From IMG/VR virus record IMGVR_UViG_3300027365_000013, positions 1 to 63,688 of that record: a DNA stretch of 63,688 nucleotides. One strand, given 5' to 3'. Of the stretch, positions 51,001 through 54,000 are shown in pieces (position 1 is the stretch's first letter; each line of letters opens with the position of its first letter). The position numbers were made by a program. The stretch is from a virus. Lineage: Duplodnaviria; Caudoviricetes.

Positions 51001-54000
51001 GCTGTCTGTACTAATGCTTATTACTTTACCTTGGATCAACTCAGCATACTTCTCAAGATTCTTGTTACTAAGAGTCAAGTATACAAGATCATTTCTCAAC
51101 AACTCAGAAAGCTGTAGAGCTTTAAAAGGTGTTAAGTTTTCGATAAGAACAGTAGACCTATTATGAAGTTGGTGATATTTAATCTCGTCATTGTCTTTAA
51201 TGAAATTGATTAAATGAATAAACTGTCCCGCCATCAAACTTGAAAACGGTACCACCGCAGTTTGTTTTGTATCTTCAATGACACCATTCGAAATAAGTTC
51301 TTTAAGACCTTTAAGGGCAGGGCTTGATATATTATTAAGATCAATCTTATCATTGAAATCCGATAGGAGTGTCGCACGTTTACCTTCAAACAATACTTTA
51401 TATTCATTACTGTTCTCGTCGGTAAACCCATGACTCTTTACAAGTTCATGTGTTGCTGAATCAATTATTTCATCAAAAGTTTTCATTGATTGCCCTACAG
51501 TCTATAAAATTGAAATAATAAAGGAAGTAGTAATCGCGGGACAACTGAGTATCGGCTTCCAGATTAGGCACGGATATATTTATAGAATTATATTCTAATA
51601 ATGTGCCTTCAATTTTAACCCAGTCAGTTGCTTGTTGCTATCTAGTGTTAGTAGATTATATCACTTTTGTATAGTATAAATCTAAACCTGATAACAACCC
51701 TAATGTAAGATCTGGAACTTTCTATCCACAATTATCTACTCGGGATTTCTCCCTATTAGCGCTAACTGTTGACTACTATACAGGAATTTATCGAGTCCGT
51801 CAAGCCTTTCTTTCAAAAACTGTGTTTCAAAGCTTACCTTTAAGTTTTAACATGTTTATACCATCATTAAACGCCTTATTATTTCTGACATGATGTGATG
51901 TGAACAAAATCATATTTTTATTTTTAGTTTTTTCAATAATCGAAAGACAATCATCGACGTTATGATATTCTTTATGGATTGGATACACTATAGCATTTTT
52001 ATTTACTACATACCAAAAGATTTCTTCATTCAACAATTCCATTTCCTTACTAAAATCTAAACATTCAATAAGTGCATCATCTGTAAAAACATCTATATGT
52101 AGGTCTATATACTCTTTCAGACTATCACTTTTATACATCAAAGTATCACTTTTATACATCAAAGTATCAATTAAATTCGACTTCGAAAATGGCTGTCTTT
52201 GATAATAACTATAATCACTAAACGTGTGAGAATGTATAGGCAGGTTACTAGTTGTAATACTGCTATTGAAACAGTCGTGAAGATCAATGCTACCAGTAGT
52301 GATATTAGTAGTGTTTTTGTCACCCGTATTCATAATTCACCCTTTTTATAAAACTCTACCATCATATTATCATTTGTCAATAAAAAAGGACTCCACAGAG
52401 TCCTTTTTTATATATGTACACGTTATTGCAGTTCATCAAAGCCTTGTGAGATTATGTTCCCATCAGGAAGCTTAACTTTCAGCGCTTCCCTTTTCTCGTC
52501 AACATCAATAACTTCACCTTTACGTCCATCATCAATTGTAACTTCATCACCAACGCTGTACTTACTTTCATTTAAAGAATCACTTTCTTTTGCTGATTCG
52601 TCTAAATCTATTTCAAATGTTTTGCTATTCCATTTGTAGTCACCCTTTGGGTTCAACCCACTTTGTTGCATCACGCGCATAACCGTTTTGATTTCTTCCA
52701 TGTCATCTGCCTGAAGAACCAGTGGGAAATCATATCCAGTTAATTGAATAGTAGCAGTGTAATTAAACACCACATCGTCACCAAGATCGTCACCACCAGA
52801 CTCTACTTCGGGCTCAGGCTCTGGTACAACATATTCATCGTCGTCACCCATATAATCGTCTTCTAGGCCATCGCGGGCGATTTCCATGTCTAATTCGCTA
52901 TCAATGTCGTAATCGTCCATATCAAGTCCTGAATCCATTCCCATATCTTCATCACCCGGAAGCTCTTCTTCATAACGATCTTCTTCAATAGGTTCTTGAA
53001 CCTCATCACTGTTCTCGACGCTTTCAAGAAGCTCTCTGTATTTTTTCATACTCATTTTAAATTATCTCCATTTTCGTTCGGCATCTTCTAGTAAATTGTA
53101 TAGTACTTCATTGTATTTATCGATTTGGTTTCTTAATTGCCTTTCCTTACTATATAGAAGATTTAGATTCGAAAAAACTCCTTTAGTAAGATTAAAATAA
53201 CCCTCATCCACATCGATATACTTCATATCATCGTATTTGAAATAGTCAGAACCCGGCTCATCCTCTTTAATCTTAATTCCTTCGCTTTGCAATTGTTGTA
53301 TAGCAATATAAAATATTGTCTGTCTATCTTTATCGGATTCATATTCAAAACGATAAACATATAATTCGTCATCATCAGTAGTCGGTTTTGTTTCAAAATG
53401 AATATATGCATAGATATACTTCATATCATGATCTAGAAGGTAATCCTTATCATAAAGTATAAAGGAGTTAGCGCCGTTGTAATAAATTAGATAGTCCTTT
53501 TCTTTTTGAGGGATTTTTTTAGGCAGTAGTGATTGATAATCCACTTTACCACTTAACCCATCAACAATATCCTGTACACGTTCTTTGCTAATTTCACCCT
53601 TTCGAATCAAATTACTGTATATTCCTGCTGCTAAGAAATTTCTTACTTCTTTTTCCCATACTTTAACTGCATTATTCAATCCAGATGGTGTGAATCCACC
53701 AGATTCTTTCTCAGGATAAAGCTCAGTGTATATCTTTTGCATTATAGGGCCTATCCCTTTCCCCTTGTACTCTTCTGCTACTGAGATTAAAACAGCGCCC
53801 CATTCATCCTGTCCTACGGCAACAATCATACCCTCTTCATTAAAGGCGGCGATGTCACCTCTATCGCTCGTATCTTGTCGTATTTGTATATATTCACCAT
53901 CGATGTTAATGCGCTTCAGGAATTTATCAAATTCTTCTAATCTTGATTTAATGAAAATCTGTTCATATTGATTTTTAATATATTTCACAGGCTGTAATTC

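Follow-up and report, generated by a model that had tools for sequence, protein, structure and literature searches.

A predicted pseudoknotted RNA upstream of an orphan gene in a jumbo-phage fragment, and its possible role as a structured leader

The virus record IMGVR_UViG_3300027365_000013 from IMG/VR (Duplodnaviria; Caudoviricetes), 63,688 nucleotides (nt) long and referred to here at its full length as the window, contains a 340 nt spacer at 51487-51826 between two minus-strand open reading frames (ORFs). On the minus strand of this spacer, behind a promoter of its own, lies a predicted pseudoknotted RNA of about 245 nt, followed by the gene for an orphan protein of 269 amino acids (aa). 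All coordinates are those of the window and the RNA is read on the minus strand. It is very probably a real, conserved and strand-specific structured element; the reading of its role that is preferred here, and held tentatively from the sequence and its surroundings, is that of a cis-acting structured 5' leader of an early operon. Among the matches listed there is one full homolog, in the 239 kb IMG/VR phage contig IMGVR_UViG_3300021979_000003, which was found through its copy of the 269 aa protein (88% identity) and has the RNA in the same place upstream of that gene. No description of this RNA was found in the literature.

Each pair in the fold was verified base by base with a script, and the parts are listed in Table 1. 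A preliminary description of this DNA had named a TTGACG-17-TATAGT promoter, five helices, a crossing of two of these, and G-U pairs that work on the minus strand, and all of this was borne out. The promoter is of the sigma70 type, with 10 of 12 matches in a promoter scan, the five helices lie on the minus strand where they had been placed, and the strand order A5' < B5' < A3' < B3' means that helices A and B cross, which makes the fold a true pseudoknot. The fold of the window includes six G-U pairs, each of which would become an A-C mismatch if the opposite strand were folded instead. The base by base check also added P0, B' and C2 to the earlier list of helices.

The fold is more than would be expected from the composition of the sequence. 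The minus strand has a minimum free energy (MFE) of -63.4 kcal/mol, as against -47.75 +/- 4.06 for its shuffles (z = -3.85), with none of the 200 shuffles as good, while for the plus strand z is -1.21 and 30 of 200 shuffles are as good. Among 300 dinucleotide shuffles, perfect helices of at least 8 base pairs (bp) are common (62%), and those of at least 10 bp less so (7%); one perfect 8 bp helix is not beyond chance, and the whole ensemble of helices is. Both arms of helix A are left unpaired in the nested MFE structure. As a duplex this helix has an energy of -10.7 kcal/mol in the window and of -11.1 kcal/mol in the homolog; when the 5' junction strand is shuffled 1000 times, 26 and 18 of the shuffles, respectively, do as well.

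The homology of the window and the homolog begins at the promoter. By blastn, 296 positions align at about 70% identity, and the mean column identity in the MAFFT alignment is 82%. Folded separately, the homolog also forms P0, P1, P3, B and C (z = -3.91, none of 200 shuffles as good). Conservation between the two is uneven, with invariant blocks of up to 20 nt that start at the predicted transcription start, and with a scrambled promoter spacer and scrambled junctions. The 5' arm of helix A is conserved although the junction segments on either side of it have diverged, and the single change in this helix is a U-A pair that is U-G in the homolog. The homolog differs from the window by 5 substitutions in the inner 5 pairs of P1, none of which breaks the pairing, while the bulge in P1 shifts its position and the helix is retained. 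In P3, one change is double compensatory and two are of the wobble kind, and a UU/UU internal loop in the homolog takes the place of two base pairs. Insertions and deletions (indels) between the two RNAs are of 1, 2, 3, 5, 6 and 12 nt, and since those of 1, 2 and 5 nt are not multiples of three, a small protein-coding gene is rejected and the RNA is taken to be non-coding. The one small GTG frame that the two sequences share is 32 aa in one and 20 in the other, and all 7 of its changed codons are non-synonymous.

The RNAalifold consensus has 49 pairs. For the 46 nested pairs that were kept, 100% of cells are paired, compared to 31-46% when the partners are slid, and 3 pairs are changed on both sides, compared to 0-1 in the slid controls. 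A hand-curated table of 69 homologous pairs, which includes helix A and the parts misaligned by MAFFT, has 68 canonical pairs in the window, 65 in the homolog and 64 in both, with 17-24 in slid controls. There are 14 pairs that differ between the sequences, of which 9 stay canonical, 4 are lost and 1 is gained. The 9 that are kept comprise 6 wobble-mediated changes and 3 double compensatory changes, the latter at 51729/51536 (inner P1), 51693/51639 (P3) and 51606/51568 (C).

Both promoter hexamers are kept in the homolog, although the sequence of the spacer between them is unrelated, and a -35-like TTGACA is present in the loose end of a partial third variant from the freshwater metagenome run X2. 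In the two-sequence alignment, 20 consecutive invariant columns begin right after the -10 hexamer, at the predicted start. The upstream neighbour is different in the homolog, where an extra gene of the DUF7220 family (PF23858, 1.6e-22; 2227-2685 of the homolog locus, plus strand) lies directly upstream of the RNA promoter and has its stop codon within the -10 hexamer. The homolog of the 168 aa gene that precedes the RNA in the window is 45% identical and is one gene further up, beyond the DUF7220 gene. The promoter, the RNA and the 269 aa gene have thus been inherited intact as a unit. The DUF7220 gene itself is membrane-like, and represents a one-gene indel with its edge exactly at the promoter.

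Table 1. Features of the RNA locus and its two flanking ORFs, with their state in the homolog where this differs
Feature	Position	Strand	Remarks
Upstream ORF, 168 aa	51827-52333	minus	
-35 hexamer TTGACG	51803-51798	minus	TTGACA in the homolog, same place
-10 hexamer TATAGT	51780-51775	minus	17 nt spacer; TATAAT with a 16 nt spacer in the homolog
Predicted transcript 5' end and invariant 5' block, including palindrome TTAGCGCTAA	51754-51770	minus	start placed from promoter geometry
P0, small 5' hairpin	51742-51753	minus	4 bp, GAAA loop; in the homolog a 6 bp stem with a 3 nt loop through a 3 nt insertion
P1, closing helix	51741-51726 / 51539-51525	minus	15 pairs, one bulged A; extended from 51739-51726 / 51539-51527
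Helix A (pseudoknot)	51717-51710 / 51564-51557	minus	8 perfect pairs
P3, long imperfect hairpin with variable tip	51634-51698	minus	base 51698-51690 / 51642-51634
Helix B	51631-51624 / 51548-51541	minus	plain 8 bp helix without a bulge, described before as 51630-51624 / 51548-51542; invariant in both sequences
B' extension, GGU / GCC	51618-51620 / 51556-51554	minus	3 bp, adjoins helix A by stacking; invariant
Hairpin C	51608-51603 / 51571-51566	minus	one G-C to A-U double change
C2, inner hairpin within C	51597-51592 / 51588-51583	minus	
TATAAATA within the C internal loop	51584-51577	minus	absent from the homolog
A/U-rich linker, fold to start codon	51487-51524	minus	poorly conserved, no terminator
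Downstream gene, 269 aa orphan protein	50677-51486	minus	start codon 38 nt past the fold

The preliminary description had left a non-coding RNA, a ribozyme and a structured leader side by side, and the anatomy of the locus favours the last of these. There is no terminator-like site on the minus strand between 50500 and 52500, only 38 nt lie between the end of the fold and the ATG, and the unit of promoter, RNA and gene is intact in the homolog; it is for these reasons that the element is read as a leader. A host-type RNA polymerase would start about 7 nt past TATAGT, near 51769, and the first 245 nt or so of the transcript would fold into one compact domain, with P0 followed by the 15 bp P1, and with P3 and the B-B'-C arm held within P1. 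Helix A would pair the strand at the junction of P1 and P3 with the internal loop in the B-C arm and would stack on B'. Transcription would be expected to continue into the 269 aa gene. The folded domain would act in cis, probably by binding either a small ligand or a protein, which might be a product of the operon itself. As a platform of this kind it might set the translation or the stability of the mRNA (messenger RNA).

Several results weigh against a leader, or against the firmness with which the fold itself can be proposed. No expression platform was found: a terminator is lacking, and pairing does not consistently hide the region of the start codon in the window or in the homolog. Two candidate long-range pairings with the 3' linker, one a 10 bp complement to the B'/C loop (51617-51608 / 51514-51505) and the other with the 5' block, were rejected, as shuffles are equally good, with 176, 297, 455 and 214 per 1000 shuffles matching the linker pairings with the B'/C loop or the 5' end. 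With no expression platform, and with alternative pairings at chance level, a classical riboswitch is disfavoured. The 269 aa product has no recognisable RNA-binding or other family, there being no PHROG, Pfam, NCBIfam or PDB sequence match and no usable Atlas match. The homolog has lost 4 of the 14 changed pairs, and its antisense strand is likewise well folded (z = -3.59). When the substituted bases are randomised, 5.7 +/- 1.7 of the 14 changed pairs are kept (P ~0.047), and a two-sequence column shuffle equals the observed covariation in 56 of 500 cases. The search for homologs and covariation that the preliminary description had proposed has thus given one full homolog of the same architecture and covariation that is suggestive, not proven; given that there are only two full sequences, and that the results of randomisation and shuffling are marginal, the covariation is not statistically secure.

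These marginal statistics, together with the well-folding antisense strand of the homolog, are among the grounds on which it could be argued that there is no functional RNA fold at all, and that the conservation is due to DNA-level signals, such as an operator, another regulatory site or a site of recombination or replication, or to chance. The helices would then be inverted repeats in A/T-rich DNA that have survived between fairly close relatives. The phages are indeed close, with a downstream protein that is 88% identical, single 8 bp helices are common by chance, and there is a perfect 10 bp palindrome at the start of transcription. However, six to seven G-U pairs in each sequence work on the gene strand only, the three double compensatory and six wobble changes lie in stems, and the bulge of P1 has moved with the helix kept. 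The adjoining neutral spacer has diverged beyond recognition, yet both arms of every helix are still complementary, and z is about -3.9 in each sequence on its own. An explanation at the level of the DNA, or of chance, is quite unlikely on this evidence. More weight can be given to a serious rival, although it is less likely than a leader, namely a stand-alone RNA that acts in trans or is catalytic, its domain of about 245 nt being freed by processing or by inefficient termination, for which the proposed roles are those of a decoy, a scaffold, a ribonucleoprotein (RNP) partner of the 269 aa protein or a ribozyme. The conserved promoter of the RNA's own would fit this, as would the poor conservation of the linker to the 269 aa gene and the absence of a detectable expression platform, and the self-contained domain, with its 15 bp closing helix and pseudoknot, is more elaborate than most phage leaders. 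Against a separate RNA are the lack of a terminator past P1, the closeness of the end of the fold to the start codon, just 38 nt away, and the lack of a match to any known ribozyme or non-coding RNA family. Nor is there a convincing separate promoter for the 269 aa gene between the fold and the ATG, the sole candidate being a 9 of 12 match at 51544-51515 that, by eye, is not kept in the homolog.

It had also been noted that the order of the helices resembles that of RNase P, the core of which runs P1-P2-P3-P4...P2'-P4'-P1'. If the closing helix is taken as P1, A as P2, the long hairpin as P3 and B as P4, the strands (closing helix, A5', hairpin, B5', A3', B3', closing helix) do follow the RNase P order, and the crossing of the four core helices is the same, although this is a likeness of topology only, which other pseudoknotted RNAs share. 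The likeness goes no further. The RF00010 model matches neither of the two phage records at E values up to 10, in a search that matches 11 of 14 control genomes, and RNase P of any type is missing from the Rfam matches at that threshold. Helix B is a plain 8 bp helix that has no bulge, the phage RNA is about half the size of RNase P or less, the conserved nucleotides of P4 are absent according to the preliminary description, and the 63.7 kb window contains no transfer RNA (tRNA) genes. That this is a minimal RNase P-like ribozyme is almost certainly wrong. A broader proposal, which is improbable, is that the element belongs to a previously undescribed class of large functional RNAs with a pseudoknot, and serves as a ribozyme or as a riboswitch that senses a ligand. 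Such a class would have the crossed-helix core topology of RNase P but not its sequence, and would to date be known from a single clade of jumbo phages that has been little sampled. The RNA would be made from a host-type early promoter, and the operon that it controls or works beside would be made up of orphan, deaminase-like and nucleotidyltransferase-like genes.

The novelty of the RNA that the preliminary description had put forward has survived comparison with Rfam 15, in which there are no matches at the gathering score over the whole window. At E values up to 10, with both sequences, only three small nucleolar RNA (snoRNA) models are matched, at 16-18 bits where the gathering scores are 43-70, which is noise. 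Nor is the element a dispersed repeat or a miniature inverted-repeat element, which is rejected as there is one copy in each record.

By analogy, the nearest functional counterpart of the proposed leader would be the autoregulatory pseudoknot leader of T4 gene 32, together with the candidate leaders upstream of GP32 genes in PMC10690425 (Fremin et al. 2023). In both cases a phage mRNA leader would begin with a pseudoknot, the start codon is reached through an A/U-rich linker with little structure, and the role proposed is that of a protein-binding operator. The phage RNA described here is, however, several times larger, with about 215 nt inside P1 and 7 helices, and the product of the 269 aa gene resembles neither gp32 nor any family.

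A second comparison is with riboswitch aptamers that have a multi-helix junction and a pseudoknot, such as those of the S-adenosylmethionine I (SAM-I), tetrahydrofolate (THF) and cobalamin classes. Like these, the phage RNA would lie in a 5' leader preceded by a promoter and is closed by a P1 helix; its junction has conserved unpaired nucleotides, and a long-range pseudoknot holds the fold in place. It differs in that it has no Rfam riboswitch match at E values up to 10 and no terminator or start-site-sequestering helix past P1, and in that the genes that would be regulated hint at no ligand. To our knowledge, few RNAs of more than 200 nt have a complex pseudoknotted fold, and almost all that have been characterised are riboswitches, ribozymes or RNP scaffolds. 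Should this RNA bind a ligand or be catalytic, it would represent a new RNA class.

As catalogued in PMC10690425, there are 10,006 candidate structured RNAs in viruses which, like the present one, are candidates from IMG/VR intergenic DNA found by comparison of relatives. As the pipeline is described there, motifs needed at least 3 unique IMG/VR regions, and motif lengths were 29-151 nt. The phage RNA, unlike these, has two instances in IMG/VR and is longer, and for these reasons it most likely fell outside the screen. It can be regarded as a candidate for a new RNA family, of which two members are known and for which the comparative support is thin. Standard large-scale screens that need at least three instances would miss an RNA of this kind in a thinly sampled clade. 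A conserved, promoter-driven RNA domain that heads an early operon would also provide a concrete handle on the control of early expression in jumbo phages.

The window itself has an estimated completeness of 14%, and is a fragment of a jumbo phage, because a neighbouring 448 aa protein resembles, at 31-32% identity, proteins of the 440-490 kb phages Atu_ph07 and SCTP-2. Jumbo phages are rich in orphan genes. The gene order 3' of the RNA is the 269 aa orphan, a 119 aa protein that is cytidine/dCMP-deaminase-like (Pfam PF00383, 9.9e-10), and a 253 aa orphan, and these three would make up the proposed early operon. The AlphaFold model of the 269 aa protein has a mean predicted local distance difference test score (pLDDT) of 53, too low for a useful structural comparison, and among 5.8 billion proteins the protein is found in only four 90% clusters, with identities of 100, 88, 83 and 72%. 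The 253 aa ORF (49512-50273, minus strand), two genes 3' of the RNA, has no Pfam, PHROG or NCBIfam model match; by eye, a G-S...D-x-D pattern at about residues 45-60 recalls proteins of the nucleotidyltransferase fold. Two genes 5' of the RNA, a 210 aa ORF (52423-53055, minus strand) is extremely acidic, with long D/E runs, and has no family match.

Within the 5' block, the palindrome TTAGCGCTAA (51765-51756) is perfect over 10 bp, lies 3-12 nt past the predicted start and is unchanged in the homolog. The window has a single copy, against a chance expectation of about 1.5, and a repeated operator is therefore rejected. The palindrome could be a repressor site at the level of the DNA instead of part of the RNA fold.

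Searches for further relatives returned to the same contig. All four IMG/VR exact DNA patterns drawn from conserved blocks recover IMGVR_UViG_3300021979_000003. Three of the IMG/VR exact-pattern scans found 76, 5 and 1 stretches, one being real in each case, and a further scan gave 57 stretches, of which 56 were new and none of the 56 matched the RNA model R1 at E values up to 10. The one stretch from a pattern scan of prokaryote genomes was rejected, as coding-like DNA without an R1 match. The remaining pattern matches, many of them within IscU-like coding sequence, share only the motif and were also rejected. Protein-anchored scans covered 31, 8, 360 and 11 stretches with 1, 0, 1 and 1 relatives, and the relative was always IMGVR_UViG_3300021979_000003. 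The metagenome protein-anchored scan covered 480 stretches, in which one locus has the last 36 residues of the gene only, and hence no RNA. There are no blastn matches among 50,697 phage records. Model R1 finds one copy in the window, one in the 239 kb relative and none in a 490 kb record (G002). The freshwater metagenome run X2 contains pieces of at least 3 relatives, one near-identical to the window, one like the homolog and one more divergent, which suggests that the clade co-occurs as several strains in one sample; none of these pieces amounts to a full third sequence. Among the 4 runs listed for the locus, none is an RNA run.

A late promoter, TATAAATA, had been reported within one loop of the RNA. 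This copy, which is in the C internal loop, is not kept in the homolog and was therefore rejected as a late promoter; it is probably not functional here and looks accidental. In the window there are 15 copies of TATAAATA where 10.5 +/- 2.9 are expected, which is not a significant enrichment. Same-strand copies about 20-40 nt upstream of ORF starts are seen at 6760-6767, 35579-35586, 47321-47328 and 63614-63621 on the minus strand and at 48167-48174 and 55813-55820 on the plus strand, the ORFs paired with them ending or starting at 6727, 35559, 47285, 63589, 48195 and 55851, respectively. Because TATAAATA often precedes ORF starts in this way, the phage may use T4-type late promoters. Around one of the motifs used in the scans, about 30 unrelated IMG/VR contigs share a conserved coding stretch that reads like the signature of the IscU/NifU iron-sulfur scaffold; its presence in so many contigs would suggest that scaffold genes are common in environmental phages.

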